Positions 83 to 13,931 are shown, numbered from the stretch's first letter. The stretch: DNA of 64,000 nucleotides from an uncultured Planctomycetaceae bacterium (GCA_963833985.1 CAWIAD010000002.1:2880001-2944000), one strand, 5' to 3'. Translations and numbers: made by a program. The notes: generated by a model from the sequence alone, not told the origin.

Positions 83-255
83 AGCGTTTTTGTGCCCACG
101 CATGGTGGCGCGCGATCACACCCGGCTGGCTCCGCATAAATCTCGACGATCAGAGAAGTTGAGATATAGAATCAGGAGATCGAATGCCGTCGGGCGAGCG
201 GGCGGGCACAAGGCGCGGTCGCGGATCCGGCTTCAACTTCCAGAAGGATTCCGTG

Positions 256-1706
256 ATGACAGCCTCGAAGACCTGGGAACGCCTGGGCCGGCCCGCCATC
301 CGCGCCGGTGTCGTTCTCGTGGCCCTGGGCCCGGTCGTGGCCTGGGGTTTGACCCGCCCGCAGGAGACCCCGGTGCAGCCCAAGGCCAGCGTTGCGGCCG
401 CCGCCAGGCCTGCCGATCCCAGGGCGCTGGCGCTGCTGGCGGAGGTGGCCAAGGCTTACAAGAATCTCGGTACGTACAGCGATGACGGCCATTTCGTCAT
501 GGCCATGACGATCGCCGGCAAGCCGCAAAAGCAGACCTTGCCGCTGAAGCTCCGCTTCGCTCGTCCCAACAAGCTTGACCTCGACGCGGGCCCCGTGCGG
601 CTGGTGAGCGACGGCAAGACCATGATCACCACGGTGCTCCCGCTCAAGCGCTATACCAGCGAGCCCGCCCCCGAGCAGATCGACATCGAGACCTTTCGCC
701 GCGGCCCCTCGGCGCGATCGTCTTTGGCGGGCCTTCGGGAACCGCGATGTTCATCCTGCTGAACTTGCTCACGGCCCCGGATGCGGCCGCCTCCCTGCAT
801 GAGCTCGGCGGCTCGCTCCAGCTTGCCGGCGATGCCCAGGGGGCCGGCAGTACGCCCCCTTCGATCCTCATCGACCAGCAGGAAGGGCCAGACATCCGCA
901 TGGTGGTTGATCCGGCCACCAAGCTGCTCTCCCGCATCGAGTTCCAGATTGATGAACCGACCCTGGCGCAGAGCGCGCCGGCTGGTCAGAAGCTCACCGT
1001 CGAGCAGTTCGGCTGGGCTGCCGGTCCCGTCAGCACTGAGCCCGCGAAAACTGATGCCTTCGCCTACGAGGTCCCCAAGGGGTTCACCAAGGTGGATTCT
1101 CTGCTCGAGCGTCCCGGCGCCGGCGCTGGCGCTGAGCCCAGGTTCGCGGTCAACGAACTGGTCGGCAAACCAGCGCCCGAGTTCACGCTGACCATCCTGG
1201 ATGGTCCCGAAAAGACGCGCACCGTGACCAGGACCGAGCTCGCCGGCAAGGTCGTCCTCATCGATTTCTGGGCCACCTGGTGCGGACCCTGCATGCAGGA
1301 GCTGCCGGAGCTTCAGAAGGTGATCGAGGCACTGGCCAGGGACAAGAAAGAAGTCGTTGTCGTTGCGCTCAGCCAGGACTCGGAGCCGCAAGAACTCTCC
1401 GAGGTTCGCAAGCTCGTCGAGAAGACGCTGGACACCAAGAAGATCCAGCTCACGGCAAGCAAGGTTGGCTGGATCGGTCTGGACCCCAGCCGATCCGTGG
1501 GCAAGGTCTTCGACGTGGAAGGTTTGCCCACGCTGGTGGTGCTCGACGCCAAGGGCGTCGTCCAGGCCGCTCACGTGGGGAACAGCCCGGACATCCGCGA
1601 GCAGCTCACCCGCGAGATCGACACGCTGCTCGCGGGCAAGTCTCTGCTCAAGGAAAAGCCAGTGCCAGCCGTCAACAAGAAGGATGCGAAGACTGACAAG
1701 GAATGA
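256..1706 (+). CDS. Exported redoxin (TlpA/ResA-like) with N-terminal LolA/DUF2092-like domain; one frameshift near 705-708
   Basis: ORFs 184..762 and 747..1706 join if one C is added to the CCCC run (RGPLGAIVFGG). N-terminal hydrophobic anchor; DFWATWCGPC thioredoxin motif; GLPTLVVLD cis-Pro loop. Confidence 0.8.
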
Positions 1707-1752: not shown

Positions 1753-4191
1753 TCACTCGGGTGGGCTGAGCGCGGGCACCTGGAAATCAGACGCGAAGAC
1801 CAGGGTCGTCGCGCCCCCCTTGGCCGGCCTGATGGTCCCCGAGAGCATCCGCATGGCCAGCGGGTCGCCCTGGCGGCTGTTCAGGGTGTAGATCTCGCTG
1901 GCGGACCAGTCGTAATCGATGATCCGGATCGTCACCGGGTCGCCCAGCTTCCAGGTGACGGGCCGGGGGAAGGTGTAGTCCCAGACAGGCCGGTGGCTGT
2001 TCGGGATGACCGACGAGGGGCCGTAGACGGCGCCCGCGACCTCGATCACAACGCCCAGGTCGGGCGCACCGCCGGCGAGGTACTTGCCCACGGTCGGCTC
2101 GACCGTGCCCCGGCGCAGCGTGACGCGATACTCGCCGGGGACCGAGACCTTGTCCCACCATTGCAGGTACCCGCGCGCGTCGCCGGCGAAGCGTCCGTCG
2201 GGGTGATCGCGGAGATAATCGCGGAGCCGGCGGGCCACTTCCGCCACGTCATCGGCGTGGGCCAAACTGTAGTCGTACGCCTCACGGTACGCGTGGCTGT
2301 CCCATTCGCGCAGGATGCGGTCGCGGGCGTCCATCGCCTCCCTGAGGAACCGGCCTCCCGCCTGGTGGGCCTTGAGGTAGTCCTGATAGCGCTCGATGCG
2401 GGCGGCGAAGCTGGTGGGATGGCTCCGCGAGTACTCCCGGGACCGGTCAATGTCGCGCTGGTCGAGCGTGGCCGTGTACTGCTCCAGCCGGGACTCCACC
2501 TCGGAACGGAGCGGGCTATCAGGGTGCTCGTCCAGGAATTGCCTGGCCCGGTCAATCAGGTCGGGCAGGGATGCGTCAGGCAACGCCGCGCTACGAACCA
2601 GATCGTCCAGGATCTTGCGCTCGGCCGCGACCCGGCGCTCCGCCTGCGTGCTCTTGAGCGACCGGGCCAGCGCCGCGACATCCGCGCGGCGCTGGCTGTC
2701 GGGGAACTCGCGCAGAAAGAGGTCGAGCTGGACCAGAGGCGTCTCGGGATCATCCGCCGCCGAGAGCGACAGGGCCAGCGCCCGGACGTCCTTCCAGCGC
2801 TCGTCGTGCCGCGAGCGCTCATGCGCTTCCTCGACGGCCCGGATGGCCGGTGCGAGCTCGGGCGCCTGCTCCTTGATCCCGTCCAGCCGGGCAGCCAGGT
2901 CGGGGGTGGGCAGGCCGCTGGCGATGCGCACGCCCGCGGCCTTCACGGCCCATTCGTTTCGCTTCAACCGCGCTTGCCTGGCCAGCGCGGGCCAGAAGAC
3001 GTCCAGCGAGGGATGGGCGGTGAACAGGCCGGACCAGCGGCGAGCCACCTGCGGTGCGGCGTTCTGATCCTCGCGCTCGAACGCCATTGCCCGCTGGAAG
3101 CCCCAGAAGTCGTATCCGGCCAGCACGGCGGGCAGCACGGCGGCCATGGCCATGATGCCTGCCACACGCCGCCATCGCCGATGCCGGCCCAGGGCCTGGA
3201 GGCGAGAGCGAAACTCGTAAGAGCGGTTCGACCGCGGGTAGCGGCGCTCGTAGGCGTTGACGCACCGCTGGAGCCGGGGCAGGTCCCGCGGGGCGAGCTT
3301 CCAGAGCCATTCCATCTGCAACCGGTCGCGAGACTCTAGCTGAGCGGCCAGCCAGCTCAGGGGCCCTTCCAGTCCCATGGGCTGGAGCTCCGTCGGCGGG
3401 CGATTGCCCGCCGACCCCGGCCCGTACGAGCTCACGCCGAAGATCACGCCGTCGGGGGCATGCTGCCGCAGCGCGTGCCGCGTCATGCCGTACTGCTCGT
3501 CCACCAGGCGCTCGACCAACGTGCCCGACAGGTCGGGCGCGGAGTCAGGGTCAGGCGCGGAGTCAGAATCCTGAGCGGAGTCAGAATCCTGGGCGGCTGG
3601 CGTCAGGGTCTGGCCGGCTTGCGGCTGCCCATCACAGGGCAGCGACCGCGCCAGGACGCGGTCGAACTTCGTCAGGAGCAGGGCGATCGGCCGATCGGTG
3701 CTCAGGTCGTCGGACCGGTCGATGTACCGTTCCAGCAGATTTTCGATTTCCTGCTGGCGTTTCCTCCGCTCGACGGGACTGGCGGAGCCGTCGGGATCGA
3801 GGCAGAGCAGGACTGCATCGCAGCCGGCGAAGAACTGCTGGATGGGCTCCTCGGAGCCGAGCGTGACGTGCTCGCCCTGGTAGTCCATGACAATGAGCTC
3901 CAGCCTGGCTGGTCCGTGGTAGAGCCGCAGCCTGAGCTCGGTCTCCGCCAGCGTTCCCGACATCGGCTGCCCCGACTCGACCTGGGCAATCTTGTCGGCC
4001 AGGTACTGGGCGCTGGTCGCGTCGGCAGCGGCCAGCCGGATTCCAGGGATTGCGCCGCTGGCCGCCTGACGGTAGAGCATCGCCAGCAGCGTGGTCTTGC
4101 CCACGTTGCGATGCCCGAACAGCGCGATCCGCTTCGGCCCGGTGAGACGCCGTTCAAGCGCATCGAGAATGTCGGAACTGCGCGACCGCAT
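1753..4191 (-). CDS. Membrane-anchored TRAFAC-class GTPase: GTPase domain, TM helix, helical repeats, C2-like C-terminal domain
   Basis: G1 GHRNVGKT, G3 DYQG, G4 TKFD, G5-like VSSYG; TM segment VAGIMAMAAVLPAVLAG; repeated (F/Y)Lxx(F/H)PD(S/G) motifs; GAGGG RBS before ATG at 4191. Confidence 0.8.
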   Translation of the reverse strand: MRSRSSDILDALERRLTGPKRIALFGHRNVGKTTLLAMLYRQAASGAIPGIRLAAADATSAQYLADKIAQVESGQPMSGTLAETELRLRLYHGPARLELIVMDYQGEHVTLGSEEPIQQFFAGCDAVLLCLDPDGSASPVERRKRQQEIENLLERYIDRSDDLSTDRPIALLLTKFDRVLARSLPCDGQPQAGQTLTPAAQDSDSAQDSDSAPDPDSAPDLSGTLVERLVDEQYGMTRHALRQHAPDGVIFGVSSYGPGSAGNRPPTELQPMGLEGPLSWLAAQLESRDRLQMEWLWKLAPRDLPRLQRCVNAYERRYPRSNRSYEFRSRLQALGRHRRWRRVAGIMAMAAVLPAVLAGYDFWGFQRAMAFEREDQNAAPQVARRWSGLFTAHPSLDVFWPALARQARLKRNEWAVKAAGVRIASGLPTPDLAARLDGIKEQAPELAPAIRAVEEAHERSRHDERWKDVRALALSLSAADDPETPLVQLDLFLREFPDSQRRADVAALARSLKSTQAERRVAAERKILDDLVRSAALPDASLPDLIDRARQFLDEHPDSPLRSEVESRLEQYTATLDQRDIDRSREYSRSHPTSFAARIERYQDYLKAHQAGGRFLREAMDARDRILREWDSHAYREAYDYSLAHADDVAEVARRLRDYLRDHPDGRFAGDARGYLQWWDKVSVPGEYRVTLRRGTVEPTVGKYLAGGAPDLGVVIEVAGAVYGPSSVIPNSHRPVWDYTFPRPVTWKLGDPVTIRIIDYDWSASEIYTLNSRQGDPLAMRMLSGTIRPAKGGATTLVFASDFQVPALSPPE
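3532..3594. repeat. Imperfect 18-bp tandem repeat (about 3.5 copies) within the GTPase gene
   Basis: Units gtcgggcgcggagtcagg / gtcaggcgcggagtcaga / atcctgagcggagtcaga / atcctgggc; encodes AQDSDSAQDSDSAPDPDSAPD. Confidence 0.85.
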
Positions 4192-4335
4192 GCTCAAGAT
4201 CCCTCTGGTGGAGAGCCAGAAAACGTCCCCTCGCCAATGACCCAGACCCGGCAAGCCACTCCTTGGTACCTCGCCGTGGTCCTCGATTCCGGGTGCCTTC
4301 CAGGGCAGAACTCGCCCCGCTTACTGCGGCGCTCC

Positions 4336-5364
4336 TCAACGCGGCGAATCAGCGGGCCAGCCGTGGCTCGCGCCCGCTGCCGGCCCCTGCGTTCTTTTTC
4401 GGAGCAGCAGGGCGAACGGCCAGGTGATCGGCCGCAGCAGGAGGCGCACCGGCAGGCCCACGATCACCAGCAATGCTCCGATGGCGACCAGGCTCGCCAG
4501 TGCCATGCCGCAGTAGCGGAACAGCGGCCGGTCCAGGCCGTGCGCGGCGAGAGCCTGGCCGACGGAGGATTCCAGGCCATCCGCGGCACCCTGGCCCACG
4601 GCCGCGGCCAGGGTGATTCCAGCCCTGGCGAACTCCCGCACGGCGTACTGCGTCGCCTGCCCGGCGTAATCGACAAACCGGTCGGGATCGATCAGGAACG
4701 CGGCCAGGACCCCGGCGGCCGCCAGCTTCTTCTTGTGAGGAAGTACCTGATGCACGAAAAACGCCCAGCCGCCCTTGCCCGTCTTGCGCAGCACGTTGAC
4801 GCTTTCGGGACCTTCCTTGACAATTGTCTCGGCCACGTCGTCCCCAAAGGCGCGGACGGCCGAGAGCCCTTCCGGACCAAGCCGGCGCACCATGGTCTCG
4901 GCCTGCTCGGGGTAGCGTTCGGCCAGGCGGCGGGCGGCCTCTCCCATCTCGACCACCAGCCGCTTCTCCGCCGGCTCCAGTGCGCCGAAGGCCCGCAAGG
5001 CCTGGGGATCGTGCTCCAGGAGCCGCGACATCCGGCCCTCGAGCAGAGCCTCGGTGGAATGGTCGATGCGCCGGCCGGCGTGCGCCAGCTCATCAGACCG
5101 CTTGACAAGCTGCTCCAGGCCCTCCTCGGCGTCATGCGAGGCGAACAAGCGCTCCGCCGCGCGCAGTTCGGTACGGCCGCCCTCGCCGCGCCGCAGCAGC
5201 GATCGGCCACCCGCGCGGGCTTCGGCGATCACCTCGCGGACGACGTCATCCAACCACGAGAGCTTTCCCGCCCGCGCCGGTGCGGCTGGCCCGAGCAGGA
5301 CCGTCAACGTGAGCAGCATCCCCACTGTTCCGCGCGTCGCGACATGAGCCGTCATGGGTCTCAT
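4336..5364 (-). CDS. Hypothetical protein with signal peptide, helical repeats and C-terminal TM helix
   Basis: 342-aa ORF; signal LLTLTVLLGPAAPARA; hydrophobic LAAAGVLAAFLIDP; C-terminal TM MALASLVAIGALLVIVGLPV; ATGA overlap with the upstream gene. Confidence 0.8.
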   Translation of the reverse strand: MRPMTAHVATRGTVGMLLTLTVLLGPAAPARAGKLSWLDDVVREVIAEARAGGRSLLRRGEGGRTELRAAERLFASHDAEEGLEQLVKRSDELAHAGRRIDHSTEALLEGRMSRLLEHDPQALRAFGALEPAEKRLVVEMGEAARRLAERYPEQAETMVRRLGPEGLSAVRAFGDDVAETIVKEGPESVNVLRKTGKGGWAFFVHQVLPHKKKLAAAGVLAAFLIDPDRFVDYAGQATQYAVREFARAGITLAAAVGQGAADGLESSVGQALAAHGLDRPLFRYCGMALASLVAIGALLVIVGLPVRLLLRPITWPFALLLRKRTQGPAAGASHGWPADSPR

Positions 5365-7475
5365 TCCTTCAAGGCGTCTCGCCCGAGCTCGATACTTGCA
5401 GCCTTGCTACGTCTGGTCCCCGCCCATCGTTCATTTCCCGGCCTCGCCGCTGGAGAGATGTGCGGCCGGGGTTCCGTCCCGTCAGGAGCGCTTCGGCCTC
5501 GCGCGGCCAGGTGCTCTTCCATCTTCTGAAAGCCAACGACGCCCACGGACGCTTGCACCAGCTGGGCGGCGACATATTTCAACCCGCGATCGGCAGGAAT
5601 CTGGAACGGGACCGCCATCCCGGCACGCAGGAGCTGGACTGGCCGCCACGAGCTGAGCCGGATGCCGGCCCTGGTGCAAAGCGGCCGGGCCAGCGCGACC
5701 ACCTGGTCAAGGCTCATGCGCGGCAACGCCTCGGGCAGCCGCTCGAACAGGGAAAAGAGGCCGCCGGCCGACCGGACAGCCGACCACCGCGCCTTGCGCT
5801 GGGCAGCCAGGTCCGCCGCGGCGACGGTCCCCGCGCCGGCAACAGCACGGGCGGCCCGGCCGCCTCCGACGTCCTTGCCCAGCGCTTCTCCAGCGGCCCC
5901 GGCCAGCTCGCGGCCGGCCGACCGGGCGCCTGCACGCGCCGCGGCCTTCACCTCGGACCGGACCACCTCGGCCACCGCGGCGCCCTCCGGCTGCACGGCG
6001 GCAAGGCTGAGCACGTCGGCAATCACGAAGCAGCCGTCCACCACGGCCCAGGTCATCTCGCCCGAGGTCGGCGCATGGCCGCGAGTCAGGACCTTGCCCA
6101 GATGCGCCACGTCGTAGAGCGGCAGGAACTGGTAGAAGCGGAGCTCGCTCTGGTTCAGGTCGGCCGCCCGCTCCAGTCCGTCCCGCCGGATGGTCCGGAT
6201 CACGGCCTGTCCGTTCTCGCCGGCAGCCAGCAGCGCCAGCTTGGCCAGCGATTCGCCCACCGACCGCTGGCTCCTGGCCTGGAGCGCGACCAGCGCTTCC
6301 GGGCTGCTGTCGGCCTGGGCGATTGCGGGGATGATGGCGCCGCCGTGCTTTCGCAAGATCTCGCGGAAATCCGCGTCAGCCGCGTACTTGTCCAGGATGT
6401 AGAGTGCCATCGAGCCATGCTCGCCCAGCGCGGCTGCGGCCTGGTGCCGCAGTGTCGGGTCCGCGAAGTCTCCGAAAACCACGTCGGCCGCGTCCGGGCC
6501 GGCCAGGGCCAGGGCGCGTTCGCCCGGCTCCCCGAACTCGATGGCCAGCCTGAGGGCCTGCGAACCGCCGCCCACCGCCTGCACCAGGCCGCGGGAAGCC
6601 AGGTGGGCCAGGTGTCCGGCCAGCGTTTCGGGCTGGTGCGTCTGGAGGTACTCGTCCACGTAGTCGGCATTGACACGCAGCACGATCAGGCATTGATCCA
6701 GCGGCAGGGCAGGGCCGACTGCCTCCAGCACCGGTCCGTACAGGCAGACCAGCGCGAACCCTTCCAGACCCTGCCCGCGGAACGCCTCGAACGCCAGGGC
6801 GCGATGGTTCTCGAACGCCCGCAGCCCGACGCGCAGGTCGGAGGCACCCTTGTCCAGGCTGATCATGCTCAGGATCAAAAGCGCGTCGGCCGTCTCCTTC
6901 GGGTCGTCCTTCAGCCCTTCCAGCAGGCCGGTCACGCCGGAGGGATCCGCCAGCAAGAGCGGCAGGGCGCCGGGATAGCGGGACGCCAGCTTGCGCTGGA
7001 GCGGGCTCAGCCGCGCCAGCTCATCCACCAGGATGTCGCGGTCGGTGTCGTCGCTCCGCTTCAGCCCGAAATACTCGCGCCAGTGCAGCAGCAAGTCCGC
7101 GGCCGCGTCGTCGGAGAGGACCTGCCGCAGGCGATGGAACTGCCTGGGGTACTTCTCGTACATGAAGACGGCTTCCAGATCAAGCTGGTCGAGCAGCTTG
7201 AGGCCGGCGAGGCCGTCGGTCCTGTCGATCGCCACGGCCGTCTGGCGAAAACGCTCGGCCACCCGGGCCACCAGCTCCCGTTCCGGACCGGGACGGTTCG
7301 CGTACCGCTGCTCGAGCTCCCGCCGCAGCTCCGCCGCCGGGACAGCGCCCGGCTCATCGCTCAGCGACGGCCGGCCCGGGGGCGGCTGGGTCCCGGACCC
7401 GTGCGGCTTGAGTGCAAGCTTGCAGAGCACTCCGAGTGCCGCGAGCAGCAGAACGACGGCAAAGGTTCTCTTCAT
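5361..7475 (-). CDS. Large N-terminally anchored helical hypothetical protein (704 aa)
   Basis: Start MKRTFAVVLLLAALGVLC (signal/anchor); strong coding codon bias; stop overlaps the next start (ATGA). Confidence 0.8.
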   Translation of the reverse strand: MKRTFAVVLLLAALGVLCKLALKPHGSGTQPPPGRPSLSDEPGAVPAAELRRELEQRYANRPGPERELVARVAERFRQTAVAIDRTDGLAGLKLLDQLDLEAVFMYEKYPRQFHRLRQVLSDDAAADLLLHWREYFGLKRSDDTDRDILVDELARLSPLQRKLASRYPGALPLLLADPSGVTGLLEGLKDDPKETADALLILSMISLDKGASDLRVGLRAFENHRALAFEAFRGQGLEGFALVCLYGPVLEAVGPALPLDQCLIVLRVNADYVDEYLQTHQPETLAGHLAHLASRGLVQAVGGGSQALRLAIEFGEPGERALALAGPDAADVVFGDFADPTLRHQAAAALGEHGSMALYILDKYAADADFREILRKHGGAIIPAIAQADSSPEALVALQARSQRSVGESLAKLALLAAGENGQAVIRTIRRDGLERAADLNQSELRFYQFLPLYDVAHLGKVLTRGHAPTSGEMTWAVVDGCFVIADVLSLAAVQPEGAAVAEVVRSEVKAAARAGARSAGRELAGAAGEALGKDVGGGRAARAVAGAGTVAAADLAAQRKARWSAVRSAGGLFSLFERLPEALPRMSLDQVVALARPLCTRAGIRLSSWRPVQLLRAGMAVPFQIPADRGLKYVAAQLVQASVGVVGFQKMEEHLAARGRSAPDGTEPRPHISPAARPGNERWAGTRRSKAASIELGRDALKE

Positions 7476-7815: not shown

Positions 7816-9340
7816 ATGGCATCCATGACGAGTTCCAATGTTGAACCGCTCGGCAAGGTCCGCACCAAGATCGTGGCGACGCTGGGGCCGGCGTCGCGCA
7901 CGCCGGAAGTGATCCGCAAGATGGTCGAGGCCGGAGTGGACGTGTTCCGGCTGAATTTTTCGCATGGAACGCACGAGGAGCATTCGGCCACGGTTGCGAC
8001 CATCCGTCAACTCACCCACGAAACCGGGCGCCATCTCTCCATCCTCCAGGACCTCTGCGGTCCCAAGATCCGCCTCGGAGACATCCCCGGGGATGTCGTC
8101 GAGTGCGATTACGGGGCCGAGTTCCGGCTCGTCACCGAACCGAAATCCCATGATGACCCCCACGAGCTGAGTTGCAGCTACAAATCGCTCACCGAGGACC
8201 TCGAGGTCGGCCAGAGCGTGCTCTTCGCCGATGGCACCGTCGCCATGGAAGTGACCGACCGCGGCCCCGGCTGTGCCTGGCTCAAGGTGACTCTGCCGGG
8301 CCGCATCCGCTCGCACCAGGGCATCAACGTGCCGAGTGCGGCCCTGAGCGTCTCTGCCCTCACGGAGAAGGACCTGGAAGATCTGAACTGGACGGCGAAA
8401 CACGCGGTGGCCTACGTCGGGCTCTCGTTCGTCCGCAGGGTCGAGGACGTGATGCGGCTGCGCGAGGAGCTGCGGAAGCGGGGCAGCCGGGCGCGGATCG
8501 TCGCCAAGATCGAGAAGCCGCAGGCCGTGGCCAACCTGGAAAGCATTGTCGCCGAGGCCGACGCCGTCATGGTGGCACGCGGCGACCTGGGGGTGGAGAT
8601 CGACGTCTCCAAGGTTCCCGGCGTCCAGAAGCAGATCATTGCCGTTTGCCACAATGCGCAGGATTCCGGTGATCACGGCCACCCAGATGCTCAATAGCAT
8701 GGAGTCGTCAAGCCGGCCCACCAGGGCGGAAGCCAGCGACGTCTTCAACGCCGTGCTCGACGGCAGCGACGCCGTGATGCTCTCGGGAGAGACGGCCATT
8801 GGCCAGTATCCCATCGAGGCGGTCTCCATGATGAGCGAGATCGCGCTGGCGGCGGAAAACCTCATGTTCTCGGAGTTCCGCCACCACGCTCCCTGGACCT
8901 GGTCGGTCGAGAACTGGCCGGGCGTGAACGGGCACGGAACCCAGCACCCCGCGCCGGTGGCCCGGGCCGGCCAGGTTCTGCCCGTGACCGACGCGATTGT
9001 CGAGGCGGCCAGCGCGGTCTGCCGGCGGCTCAACGCCGCGCTCCTGGTAGTGGCGACGCACTCCGGCCGTACGGCCCTGGCCGCCTCCAAGCAGCGCCAC
9101 GCCACGCCCACCCTGGCATTGACCGACGACGTCGAGATCGCACGAGCCATGGGGCTGTACTGGGGGGTGACCGCCCTGCACATTCCGGAGCTGTTCGAGA
9201 CCGGGCAGGTGCTCTCCTGGGCCGACGAATGGTGCCGGGCCAACGACCTGATCGACTCGGGCGACCGGGTGGTCATCGTGCGCGGCGTCATCCCCAACAA
9301 TCCCAACCACAACGCCCTGCTGGTGCACGAAGTGGAATGA
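7816..9340 (+). CDS. pyk: Pyruvate kinase (frameshift near 8659)
   Basis: RTKIVATLGP, FRLNFSHG, IVAKIEK, MVARGDLGVE in one frame; PVITATQML, RPTRAEASDV, DAVMLSGETA in the next. Removing 1 nt gives CHNARIPVITATQML. Confidence 0.95.
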
Positions 9341-9371: not shown

Positions 9372-11099
9372 GTGAGCCATTGCCCGGATCCCTGCCGAGG
9401 ACTCTTGCCGCTGGCCGCAATCGCCGTTGCCTGGATCGGCACCGGTGCCGTCGCCGCGCCGCTGGGTCCAGGCCCGGTCGAGGCCAACCGCGTTCTCGAG
9501 ATCTCCTTCACGTCCGGGCGCCCGTCCCTGGACCCGGACGCGGCCGATGCGATCGAGCTCGATGTCCGCTTCACGCCGCCCTCCGGCAAGGCGGTCCGGC
9601 TGCCAGCCTTCTGGGCCGGCGGCAAGACCTGGCGCGTCCGCTACGCGTCGCCCGAGCCGGGCGTTCATTCCTACGTGACAAGCTGCTCGAAACACGATGA
9701 GCCCGGCCTCGACGGCGTCCGCGGCAGCGTCGAGGTGGTGCCCTACCGTGGGGAGAACCCGCTCTACCGGCACGGCCCGGTTCGCGTCGCGACGGATAGA
9801 CGCCATTTCGCCCATGCCGACGGCACGCCCTTCTTCTGGCTGGGCGACACCTGGTGGATGGGACTTTGCCAGCGGCTCCAGTGGCCCGACGAGTTCCGCA
9901 CCCTGGCCCGCGACCGGCAGGCCAAGGGGTTCACGGTCATCCAGATCGTCGCCGGGCTCTACCCGGACATGCCGGCCTTCGATCCGCGGGGTCGCAACGA
10001 GGCCGGCTTTCCCTGGACTGTAAATTACGGGCACATTCGCCCCGAGTACTTCGACCAGGCCGACCAGCGGCTCTTCGACCTGGCCGATCGCGGGCTGGTC
10101 CCGTGCATCGTGATGGCCTGGGGATATCACCTTCCCTGGATGGGCGCGGAAAAGGTCAAGAAACATGTGCGGTACGTGCTGGCTCGCTATGGTGCGCTGC
10201 CGGTGGTATGGTGCCTGGCCGGCGAGGTCAACCTGCCGTACTACATGGCGCAGGGCTTCCCACGCGGGGGAGAACCGCAGACCAAGGACTGGGAGGCCGT
10301 ACTGCGCTACGCGCGCGGTGTGAACGGGCTCGATCGGCCCTGGACCGTGCACCCCACCGGCATCGAGCCGCTGAGCGGCCGCCTGCTCTTGCAGGATCCC
10401 GCCCTCCTCGACTTTGACATGCTCCAGACCGGCCACGGCCTGCGCGAGGTTTTGCCGCCCACGATCCGCGCCCTGCACGCCTCTTACGCCGCGAAGCCCA
10501 CCATGCCCGTCGTCAATGCCGAGGTGTGCTACGAGGCGCTCTCGGGCCGGATCCCCGCCGAGATTCCTCGGCTCATGTTCTGGACGTGCATGCTCTCCGG
10601 CGCCGGCGGTCATACCTACGGTGCCAACGGCATCTGGCAGTTGAACCGCCGCGATCAGCCTTATGGCAAGTCGCCCCACGGCGGTACCTACGGACCGATC
10701 CCCTGGGACGACGCCATGCGCCTGCCGGGTTCGCGGCAGCTTGGCCAGGCGAAGGCCCTGCTCGAGCAATATCCCTGGTACCGCCTCGAGCCTCATCCGG
10801 AGTGGGCCGCGTGGACGCTGACGGGGACCCATGACGCCACCGGAACCGGTTTCGAGGTCCCCTACGCCGCCGGCATTCCCGGATCGTTGCGGATCATCTA
10901 CGCCCCGCTTCCCCGCCCTGTGCAGATCAGGCACCTGGAGGCAGGGCGTACTTTTCATGCCTTCTGCCATGATCCGGTGACCGCCCGCCGGACCGACCTG
11001 GGGATGGTTCGTCCCGCGGCGGATGCTTCCTGGACGGCCAGTCCCCCGCAGGGTACGGCCACCGACTGGGTGCTCATTCTGGAGCCAGAGCAGCACTGA
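9372..11099 (+). CDS. DUF5060/DUF4038 apiosidase-like (GH140-related) glycoside hydrolase
   Basis: AFWAGGKTWRVRY, DGTPFFWLGDTWW, VWCLAGE, NAEVCYE, GHTYGANGIWQ motifs; signal peptide. Confidence 0.8.
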   Translation: MSHCPDPCRGLLPLAAIAVAWIGTGAVAAPLGPGPVEANRVLEISFTSGRPSLDPDAADAIELDVRFTPPSGKAVRLPAFWAGGKTWRVRYASPEPGVHSYVTSCSKHDEPGLDGVRGSVEVVPYRGENPLYRHGPVRVATDRRHFAHADGTPFFWLGDTWWMGLCQRLQWPDEFRTLARDRQAKGFTVIQIVAGLYPDMPAFDPRGRNEAGFPWTVNYGHIRPEYFDQADQRLFDLADRGLVPCIVMAWGYHLPWMGAEKVKKHVRYVLARYGALPVVWCLAGEVNLPYYMAQGFPRGGEPQTKDWEAVLRYARGVNGLDRPWTVHPTGIEPLSGRLLLQDPALLDFDMLQTGHGLREVLPPTIRALHASYAAKPTMPVVNAEVCYEALSGRIPAEIPRLMFWTCMLSGAGGHTYGANGIWQLNRRDQPYGKSPHGGTYGPIPWDDAMRLPGSRQLGQAKALLEQYPWYRLEPHPEWAAWTLTGTHDATGTGFEVPYAAGIPGSLRIIYAPLPRPVQIRHLEAGRTFHAFCHDPVTARRTDLGMVRPAADASWTASPPQGTATDWVLILEPEQH

Positions 11100-11526
11100 G
11101 AATCGCCCAGGGAAGGTCAAGACCGCCGGCAGTCGCCGGTCCATGGGACCATTCTCAGGAACGCGTGGCCGAGAGCTGGAAAACCGCGAACCGGACACGC
11201 CCCCGCGCAGCCGGCTGACCCCCGCGCAGTCGCCCACCCGAGGCGACACGCCGTGGGCGCTCGGGGGCCAGTTCCGCGCGGGCGGGCCAGTCAGGCATGC
11301 GACGGCATGCCGGGTTCGCCAGGGCGCGCGGGGAATGCGTGTTCTCCGGATCAACGCTACAGTGCACCGCGATCTTTACGGGTCCCGGGATGACGGGGCT
11401 CTTTCTTTCTCATTGCCGTCGCGTTCTATTACAACAAGCATGTTGGGCACGCACGCTGGCTCGGGCTGGATCTTGGCGGGAGAGTCGCGTCTGAGCCGAT
11501 CGGGCGGAGGCTTTGGGGGAGCAGCG

Positions 11527-13931
11527 ATGAGACGGCTTCTGGTGCAGGGCAAGACGCGGGACAGCCGGCTGGGCGTGGCATGGTACGGGCTTCTGGTCGC
11601 TGGGTCTCTGTGGGGTTCCTCATGGGCTGGGGCCGCCGCCCCGGTCGCCGACAAGGTGAGGCCGGTCGTCCCGATCCAGGCGATCCCCTTCAACCTGGAA
11701 GACGTCCGGCTGCTGCCGGGTCCGTTCCGGCATGCCATGGAGCTCGATCAGAAATACATCCTCGCGCTCGACGTCGACCGGCTGCTTCATAGCTTCCGGC
11801 TCAACGCGGGGCTGCCCTCGACCGCGCGGCCGCTGGGCGGGTGGGAAGCGCCCAAGGGCGAACTGCGCGGGCATTTCACTGGGCATTACCTCTCGGCCTG
11901 CGCTCATGTATGCCAGCACCGGGGACGACCGCTTCAAGGCCAGGGGAGACCAGCTTGTCGCCGGACTGGCGGAATGCCAGCGGAAGATCGGCTCGGGATA
12001 CCTGAGTGCTTTTCCCGAGACGTTCATCGATCGTGTCGAGAATCGCAAGCCGGTCTGGGCGCCCTGGTACACCTTGCACAAGATCCTGGCTGGCCTGCTC
12101 GATATGAACGAGCACTGTGGCAACGCCCAGGCGCTGGAGGCGGCCTGCAAGTTCGCCGACTGGGTCAAGGTCCGCACCGACCGGCTCAGTGATGACCGCA
12201 TGCAGGCGATGCTGGGCACCGAGCACGGCGGCATGAACGAGGCCCTGGCGAACCTCTACGCGCGGACCGGCGAGGAGCGGTACCTGAAGCTGGCCGAGCG
12301 CTTCAACCACCTGGCAGTGCTGCGCCCGGCGGCGCAGGGCCGCGACACGCTCACCGGGCTGCACGCCAATACTCAGATCCCCAAGTTCATCGGCACGGCC
12401 CGCGAGTACGAGCTGACGGGCGAGGACTGGCTCAGATCCGCCTCGCGGTTCTTCTGGGACACCGTGGTTCACGAGCGCTCCTACGTGATCGGCGGTCACA
12501 GCGACGGCGAGATGTTCTCGCCCAAGGAGCGGCTCTCCAAGGCGCTCGGCCCGAACACGACGGAGACCTGCAATACCTACAACATGCTCAAGCTGACGCG
12601 GCACCTGTTCACCTGGGACCCGCGCGCCGAGTATGCCGATTACGAGGAACGCGCGCTGGTCAACCACATCCTGGCGTCGCAGAATCCCGAGACCGGCATG
12701 ATGTGCTACTACCTGCCCCTGCGCTCGGGCTCCCGGAAGGTCTTCAACGGCTTCGATGACGCCTTCTGGTGCTGCACCGGGACCGGCGTGGAGAACCACG
12801 GCCGGTATGGGGAAAGCGTCTATTTTCACGACGCCGGCAGGACACTCTATGTGAACCTGTTCCTGGCCTCCGAGGCTCGACTGGAAAGCCCGAGGGGTGA
12901 AGCTCCGCCAGGAGACGCAGTTTCCCCGCGAACAGGCGACGCGGCTGGTCGTCACGTGCCAGCAGCCGACGGAGTTCACGCTCAAGCTGCGCCATCCGGC
13001 GTGGGCCGCGTCGAGGTCCGGCTCGGGCTCGGGGTCCGGCCCGGGGTTCACGATCACACTCAACGGCGAGTCCCTGAGCGAGGAGAGCAAGCCGGGGAGT
13101 TACGCGGAAATCAAGAGGCTCTGGAAGACCGGCGACGTGGTCGAGGTTGCGTTCCCGTTTCGCCTCCACACCGAAGGGTTCCACGACAACCCGAACCGCC
13201 TGGCGTTCCTGCACGGCCCGGTGGTCCTCTGCGGCGCGGTGGATCCGGCTTCGCCCGTGCCGGTCATCGTCGCCGATCCCGGGAAACTGCTCGGGGCGGT
13301 CGAGGCTGTGGCGGGCCAGGACTCCACATTCACCGCGTTGCCCGAGCTCTTCCAGACGCCAGGGACCGCACATGCCAGCCGCGCGGTGACGCTCGAGCCT
13401 CTCTATGCAATGCACGGCCAGCGGCATTACGCGGTCTACTGGGACCTGCTCACGCCGGCGGAGTGGCAAGCCTGGCAGGCCGAGGCGGCCGCCGAGCAGG
13501 CACGCCATGAAGACCTGGTGCGCCAGACTGTCGATTTTGTGGATCCCGCCCAGAGCGAGAGCGAGCGGGACCACCGCCTGGAGTCGGAAAAGTCCGCCCG
13601 CGGGACCTTCAACGACCGGGGCTGGAGGCACGCGGTCGACGGCGGCTGGTTTCGCTATGAGGTGAAGGTATCGCCGGGCCAGAAGGAACTGCTCGTGGTG
13701 ACCTACTGGAGCGGCGAATCCGGCGGGCGCGCCTTCGACGTGGTGGTGGACGGGCGGAAACTGGCCAGCGAAACGTCCGAGAGCAACCGGCCCGGCATGT
13801 TCTACGATCAGTCCTACCCTCTTCCACCGGAGCTCACGAAGGGGAAGAATCATGTGATGGTGACGTTCCAGGCGCGGTTTCGCCGGATGGCTGGCCGCGT
13901 CTTCGGCGTGCGTGTGGTGCGCGTGCCGTGA
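11527..13931 (+). CDS. GH127/GH146 beta-L-arabinofuranosidase-like protein (frameshifts near 11901 and 12880)
   Basis: GGWE..ELRGHFTGHYLSA, WAPWYTLHKI, EHGGMNE, HANTQIPK, ETCNTYNMLKL, FWCCTGTG spread over three consecutive ORFs. Confidence 0.9.

Follow-up and report, generated by a model that had tools for sequence, protein, structure and literature searches.

The window, a stretch of 64,000 nucleotides from an uncultured Planctomycetaceae bacterium, carries on its minus strand three genes that are referred to as A, B and C in the order of transcription (Table 1). Their lengths and common orientation agree with the preliminary description, as does their location between a redoxin-like gene and pyk, both of which are presumed to be such from their motifs. 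Membrane segments had also been ascribed to all three proteins, and hydropathy confirms them: besides those listed in Table 1, hydrophobic stretches are located at residues 476-494 of A and, as the C-terminal anchor, at residues 292-310 of B (KD 2.58). The codon use of the resident genes is native (GC3 0.80-0.87, with 0.83-0.87 for A, B and C).

Table 1. Coordinates of the genes, protein segments and related loci; positions without a locus or contig name refer to the window.
Feature	Position	Strand	Description
Gene A	5361..7475	minus	704 aa ORF; membrane anchor at the N-terminus, then an all-helical body with a conserved hydrophobic hairpin (predicted)
Gene B	4336..5364	minus	342 aa ORF; likely signal peptide, helical exported domain, C-terminal TM anchor
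Gene C	1753..4191	minus	812 aa ORF; DO-GTPase2 - TM - helical rod - C2 (predicted)
A residues 4-22	7410..7466	minus	likely uncleaved signal anchor (hydropathy KD 2.46)
A residues 447-498	5982..6137	minus	conserved helical hairpin, YD..HL...G..PT.GE..A.D...D
C residues 20-290	3322..4134	minus	TRAFAC GTPase domain with Walker-B glutamate (DYQGE)
C residues 343-361	3109..3165	minus	likely single TM helix behind basic run (KD 1.69)
C residues 363-685	2137..3105	minus	helical rod, weakly BamD/YfiO(TPR)-like
C residues 686-808	1768..2136	minus	predicted C2 domain, conserved D711, D759, D761
Gene D	G000:C2:5223497-5224216 (L033:1411-2130)		GAP1-N2-like gene of the same genome
Canonical pair	G000:C2:4375101-4377916 (L096:8102-10917)		small DO-GTPase2 + GAP1-N2 pair of the same genome
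Second cassette	G000:C2:6066623-6075243 (L097:7624-16244)		A'-B'-C'-D'-D'' of the same genome
Rod-C2 loci	L038:2665-4791, L039:2475-4676, L042:9624-10853, L043:8770-9966		

The proposed coupling of A and B via an ATGA overlap is not supported. An alternative frame closes A at window positions 5484-5482 with the family-typical ending ...RPKRS*, and the tail following the KMEE motif comprises 54 aa in the query compared to 13-17 aa in 58 of the 74 homologues carrying this motif. The neighbouring genes also look frameshifted. The overlap is probably an artefact of a one-base frameshift, and so are the last ~40 aa of A. At window 184-1706, 7816-9340 and 11023-13510 the redoxin-like gene, pyk and a glycoside-hydrolase-like gene (presumed names) appear to be spread over two overlapping frames each, and genes divided in this way suggest indel errors in the assembly. 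The likely start of B is position 5355; in the database B begins at its second ATG and has 339 aa.

A has no match among the families of Pfam, NCBIfam and PADLOC. The protein is predicted to be all-helical (structure model, pLDDT 69), and the helical hairpin is its best-kept motif in distant copies, the body having a median identity of 0.62 in a homologue set biased to close matches. Foldseek returned no match at E 0.001, and the best Z of the VIA-wide fold alignment (7.3 over 75 residues) corresponds to the background level for helical proteins and does not in itself point to a new fold. The C-terminus is conserved across the family and has no match to a toxin family. Weak look-alikes of A in the Atlas, which serve as a lead only (score 0.76), include pre-toxin TG and polymorphic-toxin clusters.

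For B a signal peptide is likely, as judged from the conserved AxA-GKLSWLDD start and not from the hydropathy scan. Its exported domain is helical with GDD-type repeats. The domain scan revealed no family among 78 members save two single chance-level matches, no PDB relative was found, and B matches only unnamed planctomycete clusters; across its homologues, a set biased to close matches, the median identity is 0.70. The view of A and B as uncharacterised partners is supported; no known family matches either of them. Profile comparison does not support A and B as paralogues.

The GTPase motifs previously recognised in C (G1 GHRNVGKT, G3 DYQG, G4 TKFD and G5 VSSYG) are near-invariant in 41 aligned homologues. 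The same applies to G2, represented by T84, and D103, G106 and E107, the last being the Walker-B glutamate after G3 (DYQGE), are invariant. A match to the DO-GTPase profiles had been suggested as a test, and PF19993 (DO-GTPase2) scored above its cut-off on C (45.1 bits versus 27) and was found at the scan threshold in 41/41 homologues. The parallel test of a dynamin relationship gave no Dynamin_N match and weak Foldseek matches to dynamin-like and mitofusin proteins (BDLP/MFN; E 7e-4) with a poor fit (TM 0.2-0.3, rmsd 17-38 Å).

The TM helix of C follows the basic run RHRRWRR, and according to the positive-inside rule the GTPase likely faces the inside and the rod the outside of the inner membrane. 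The AlphaFold model (mean pLDDT 83, pTM 0.43) places a helical stalk between the G domain and the helical rod, which leads into a beta domain; the packing of the domains against each other is unsure. The rod is weakly YfiO-like in 35/41 homologues. The top Foldseek matches of C were all C2 domains (E 5e-5 to 1e-3, TM 0.5-0.7 by target), a profile search of the PDB retrieved the same C2 protein (9bkw, E 0.0023), and the Pfam C2 cut-off was passed by distant full-length relatives (L037, L040), with weak matches in 2/41 close homologues. As modelled, the C-terminal part of C is a C2 beta-sandwich domain. Its loop aspartates are conserved in 40/41 (D711), 41/41 (D759) and 40/41 (D761) homologues; only three of the usual five acidic residues are evident, and going by C2 motifs they may correspond to canonical Ca2+ ligands. 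The median identity is 0.61 in the rod and 0.78 in the C2 domain, both in sets biased to close matches. A low-complexity DSAQ/DSAP insert at residues 185-217 (window 3541-3640) is disordered (pLDDT <50) and longer than in the relatives.

The preliminary description had recognised no GAP1 partner, and its absence is not supported. A GAP1-N2-like gene, D, is located 2.3 Mb from A-B-C in the same genome and lies directly behind C in most relatives; the first lead to it was a weak GAP1-N2 match in the gene behind a C homologue of Gemmatales (L008). GAP1-N2 was detected in 15/25 D proteins (best E 5e-10) and GAP1-M, weakly, in 2/25 (best E 0.004), with no further family among them. The D protein of this genome has no Pfam match of its own, and its comparison with the canonical GAP1 of the same genome gave 60% (E 9e-5). 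Many D proteins bear a TM segment and an outer helical domain, while others, this genome's included, are truncated and have lost both. A PDB sequence search with the D profile found nothing. Two genes that follow D in the relatives as well, one with DUF6174 and one methyltransferase-like, have moved along with it. The genome furthermore contains a separate small canonical DO-GTPase2 and GAP1-N2 pair, located behind an FGE-sulfatase gene.

The earlier proposal of a single system called for A, B and C to occur together in other genomes, and they do: of the 121 genomes of the family, which named homologues place as Isosphaeraceae, 116 have C, 114 have A, 112 have D and 111 have B, and each of the four was detected in 46/47 good genomes, essentially as a single copy. 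One of the C matches in the family (G333, E 2e-6) is probably no orthologue. Counted from the best matches listed, which give the coordinates of C in 111 of these 116 genomes, A and B are adjacent in 60/109 cases, B and C in 94/108, and D stands directly behind C in 71/105. The members of a pair are on different contigs, which is partly uninformative, in 19 (A-B), 12 (B-C) and 22 (C-D) cases; on the same contig yet apart are A from B in 30/109 and D from C in 12/105, this genome being among the latter. Among the matches listed, 46 genomes from 26 genera have A-B-C as a contiguous run, and 29 genomes from 18 genera have A-B-C-D.

Outside the family, a sample of 301 genomes of the phylum yielded just weak or partial C matches in 15 genomes, and B was nearly absent. 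The sample covers one other planctomycete family of the class, and since the module was found in 0/15 genomes there, its function is not general to planctomycete envelopes. Strong full-length C homologues were detected in 11 of 101 Gemmatales-order genomes, D being near C in 6 of those 11 loci, and neither A nor B was found in the 6 genomes tested that have a resident-type C. In a quick tree, the long branches of which are unsure and from which L083, L084, L103 and several canonical GTPases were excluded by a motif filter, 19 resident GTPases of the family form one group (support 93). The native codon use and the conserved outer domains agree with a resident set of genes.

The second cassette of the same genome has the order A-B-C followed by two TM genes. 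Its GC content is 0.53-0.59 compared to 0.65, with a GC3 of about 0.6; it sits behind genes for an HTH regulator and a DUF2934 protein, and its C' is placed at a distance on a long branch of the quick tree. Homology to the resident proteins was detected for A' (HHalign, 96.6%, E 6e-10), B' (E 1e-14) and C' (96.6%, E 5e-10). Close relatives of this island were found in the metagenome loci L106-L108. The order A-B-C occurs in 8 distinct divergent loci, namely the island, L083, L084, L101, L103, L111, L112 and the near-identical L106-L108, which were counted as one locus. Behind C, these copies carry genes without profile match to D, which resemble it by position and topology only. As the order is kept in very divergent copies, A and B are likely true partners of C.

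Our leading interpretation, which we put forward tentatively, is that A-B-C-D form a four-gene module, conserved as one copy in almost all Isosphaeraceae, which might serve, switched by GTP, as a sensor or tether reaching across the inner membrane. All four proteins would presumably be single-pass inner-membrane proteins. The GTPase of C and the GAP1-N2-like head of D would face the cytoplasm, where D would control the nucleotide state of C, whereas the rod of C would reach through the periplasm, with its C2 tip binding Ca2+ and a second membrane surface, either the inner leaflet of the outer membrane or a neighbouring invagination. A and B may form a periplasmic scaffold beside the rod, the hairpin of A possibly inserting into the membrane. 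Through a coupling between the GTP cycle and the binding of the C2 tip, the module could report, hold or release the membrane spacing in growth, budding or envelope damage. Two contexts in lineage f47 speak for a sensor or tether, namely the rod-C2 part on Ser/Thr kinases and a MlaF-MlaE fusion within the operon. The module might have originated as a mobile conflict-type cassette and been fixed in the family afterwards, the low-GC island copy being a relative. The universal retention of a single copy favours a housekeeping role over defence for the resident copy. Evidence to the contrary comes from the operon, which is often split, from D, which is without TM segment and outer domain in this genome and in many relatives, from the resident-type C homologues of Gemmatales-order genomes, for which neither A nor B was found in the 6 genomes tested, and from the published view of the class as conflict or immunity systems.

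A role in defence at the membrane is the main alternative, which we consider less likely. Here the rod and C2 domain would sense an envelope breach or Ca2+ entry upon attack by phages or mobile elements, the GTPase and GAP1 would set the threshold, and the A hairpin together with B would act as membrane effector or plug. The divergent copies are patchy and located on low-GC DNA, and in one of these loci type I CRISPR-Cas-like genes and a WYL-like gene, as we presume them to be from their sequences, adjoin the island-type cassette (L107:1-8641). The pre-toxin and polymorphic-toxin look-alikes of A, lead as they are, and the core pair, which is that of the predicted conflict systems in the accessible text of Kaur et al. 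2020 (PMC7159879), agree with this view as well. However, the near-universal retention of a single resident copy argues against an ordinary patchy defence system, its outer domains are conserved and no variable effector was found, and the genes were retained despite being scattered over the chromosome. The PADLOC check suggested in the preliminary description yielded nothing but weak P-loop matches in C; A and B had no match.

It is improbable that A and B constitute a device, gated by the GTPase and located at the surface or in the periplasm, by which cells make contact in order to aggregate, to form filament junctions or to transfer DNA. This possibility is raised by B-like genes in integrative elements (L099, L100, L102, L104), each located behind an orphan secreted helical gene. 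They match B in HHalign (97.5%, E 6e-12), and a VirD4-type coupling protein and ParB are encoded beside the B-like gene in 3/4 of these loci and an integrase in 2/4. However, the elements are without A and C, the resident operon has no outer-membrane component linked to it, and the secreted partner gene, considered as a homologue of A, has no profile match to it.

The rod and C2 domain could also bridge the membranes for an Mla-type ABC transporter and thus be dedicated to lipid transport from the inner to the outer membrane. C2 domains bind phospholipid. In the AT-rich lineage f47 (L034, L035, L036) one or two genes of the C architecture (GTPase-TM-rod) are part of an operon of TM proteins, and a MlaF-MlaE fusion is encoded within this operon in 3/3 full-length loci (Pfam-tested in 2), providing a link to membrane lipids; neither A nor B was detected in the f47 loci. 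Nevertheless, this role has little probability for the resident module since no such gene is present among the conserved neighbours in the Isosphaeraceae or Gemmatales-order loci, the three MlaE genes of this genome are unlinked to it, and the fold searches of C and A turned up no lipid carrier. The rod-C2 part was also observed (Table 1) joined to a Ser/Thr kinase in f47 or, in f20, on its own with a hydrophobic segment at the N-terminus; its occurrence on Ser/Thr kinases is the behaviour expected of a portable sensor.

That A and B are neighbours carried along and no partners of C is very improbable, because their order with C persists in the highly divergent loci despite different flanks and the three genes share the same family-wide presence, even though the resident-type C-D of Gemmatales-order genomes occurs without A or B, A-like genes stand alone in 3/6 loci fetched and one locus has A-C without B. 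A-like genes without B were observed in L109, L110, L113 and L114; in L110 the gene precedes C-like and TM genes, and the other three have no B or C nearby.

The interpretation as a GTP-switched sensor or tether could be taken further, to a mobile conflict cassette that has turned into an essential GTP-gated membrane contact site, which with a DENN-like regulator and two scaffolds of new fold would set the spacing of inner and outer membrane or drive budding in cells without FtsZ, as a counterpart of the eukaryotic C2 tethers. We regard this extended version as doubtful. The module brings a GTPase and a predicted C2 domain together in one protein of bacteria with budding division and an unusual envelope, for which no machinery is known. 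Since one version is fixed across a family that includes cultured species, it offers a direct test case for the predicted DO-GTPase/GAP1 systems, and the presence of resident and mobile copies within one genome makes the domestication testable.

Among the systems with which the module may be compared, bacterial dynamin-like proteins and mitofusins likewise combine a GTPase with helices and a membrane segment behind it, but the chain of C appears to cross the membrane once instead of folding back, and the global fit is poor. The pre-toxin TG region of polymorphic toxins resembles A in its helical repeats and hydrophobic hairpin, whereas A is without Pfam match, variable C-terminal toxin domain or immunity-like gene. 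With eukaryotic C2 tethers and sensors (extended synaptotagmins, ferlins, the C2 domain of cPLA2) C shares a (predicted) terminal C2 domain on a membrane-anchored protein and conserved acidic loop residues; in contrast to them the domain is predicted to be periplasmic, is single and without an SMP domain, and is joined to a GTPase across the membrane. In 2012 the C2 fold was described as unknown outside eukaryotes, according to the accessible part of that work (PMC3495828). Our literature search found no work on Isosphaeraceae GTPases, on bacterial C2 domains or naming these loci by tag (some tags were guessed), and the combination of C2, planctomycetes and GTPase led to unrelated work only.

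A system outside the known kinds, as first proposed, is not supported, since at the core of the module stands the pair of DO-GTPase2 and GAP1-N2 that Kaur et al. 2020 described (PMC7159879). In the accessible text of that study the class is defined by a DO-GTPase with Walker-B glutamate and a downstream GAP1 and is read as conflict or immunity systems by prediction; GAP1-M and GAP1-C domains belong to the GAP1, usual traits are N-terminal zinc ribbons or a second GTPase copy (in 38% of the systems), the neighbourhoods are mobile with highly variable effector components and include an FNIII-repeat component, and SH3, PEGA, beta-sandwich, NTF2 and PDZ are named as outer domains (PMC7159879). The term "C2 domain" occurs 0 times and Isosphaeraceae are unmentioned in this text, the neighbourhood source data of which may list these loci (PMC7159879). 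Other literature, as far as its accessible text goes, mentions DO-GTPases in passing, and no experimental study of DO-GTPase/GAP1 systems was found in the literature searched. Since a DO-GTPase with Walker-B glutamate and a GAP1 are both predicted here, the module is, judged by its sequences, a variant of this known and purely predicted kind.

The likeness to the GAP1-N2-type systems extends from the DO-GTPase2 with its Walker-B glutamate and the GAP1-N2-like gene typically just downstream to TM-bearing parts, extracytoplasmic domains past a C-terminal TM segment and the occurrence in planctomycetes. The module differs from them in having one GTPase (L034 and L035, distant loci of f47, are the only ones in which two GTPase genes were seen) and no zinc ribbons, which are absent from C, nor any tubulin, vWA or variable effector. 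An FNIII component was likewise not found, A and B being without Pfam match, A predicted all-helical and the conserved neighbour clusters judged by eye. Mobility, typical of the class, was seen only for the divergent island copies, whereas the resident copy keeps its conserved partners across the good genomes of the family. The module is further set apart by a rod and predicted C2 domain beyond the TM segment, by two constant orphan partners and by core genes that are fixed in single copy.
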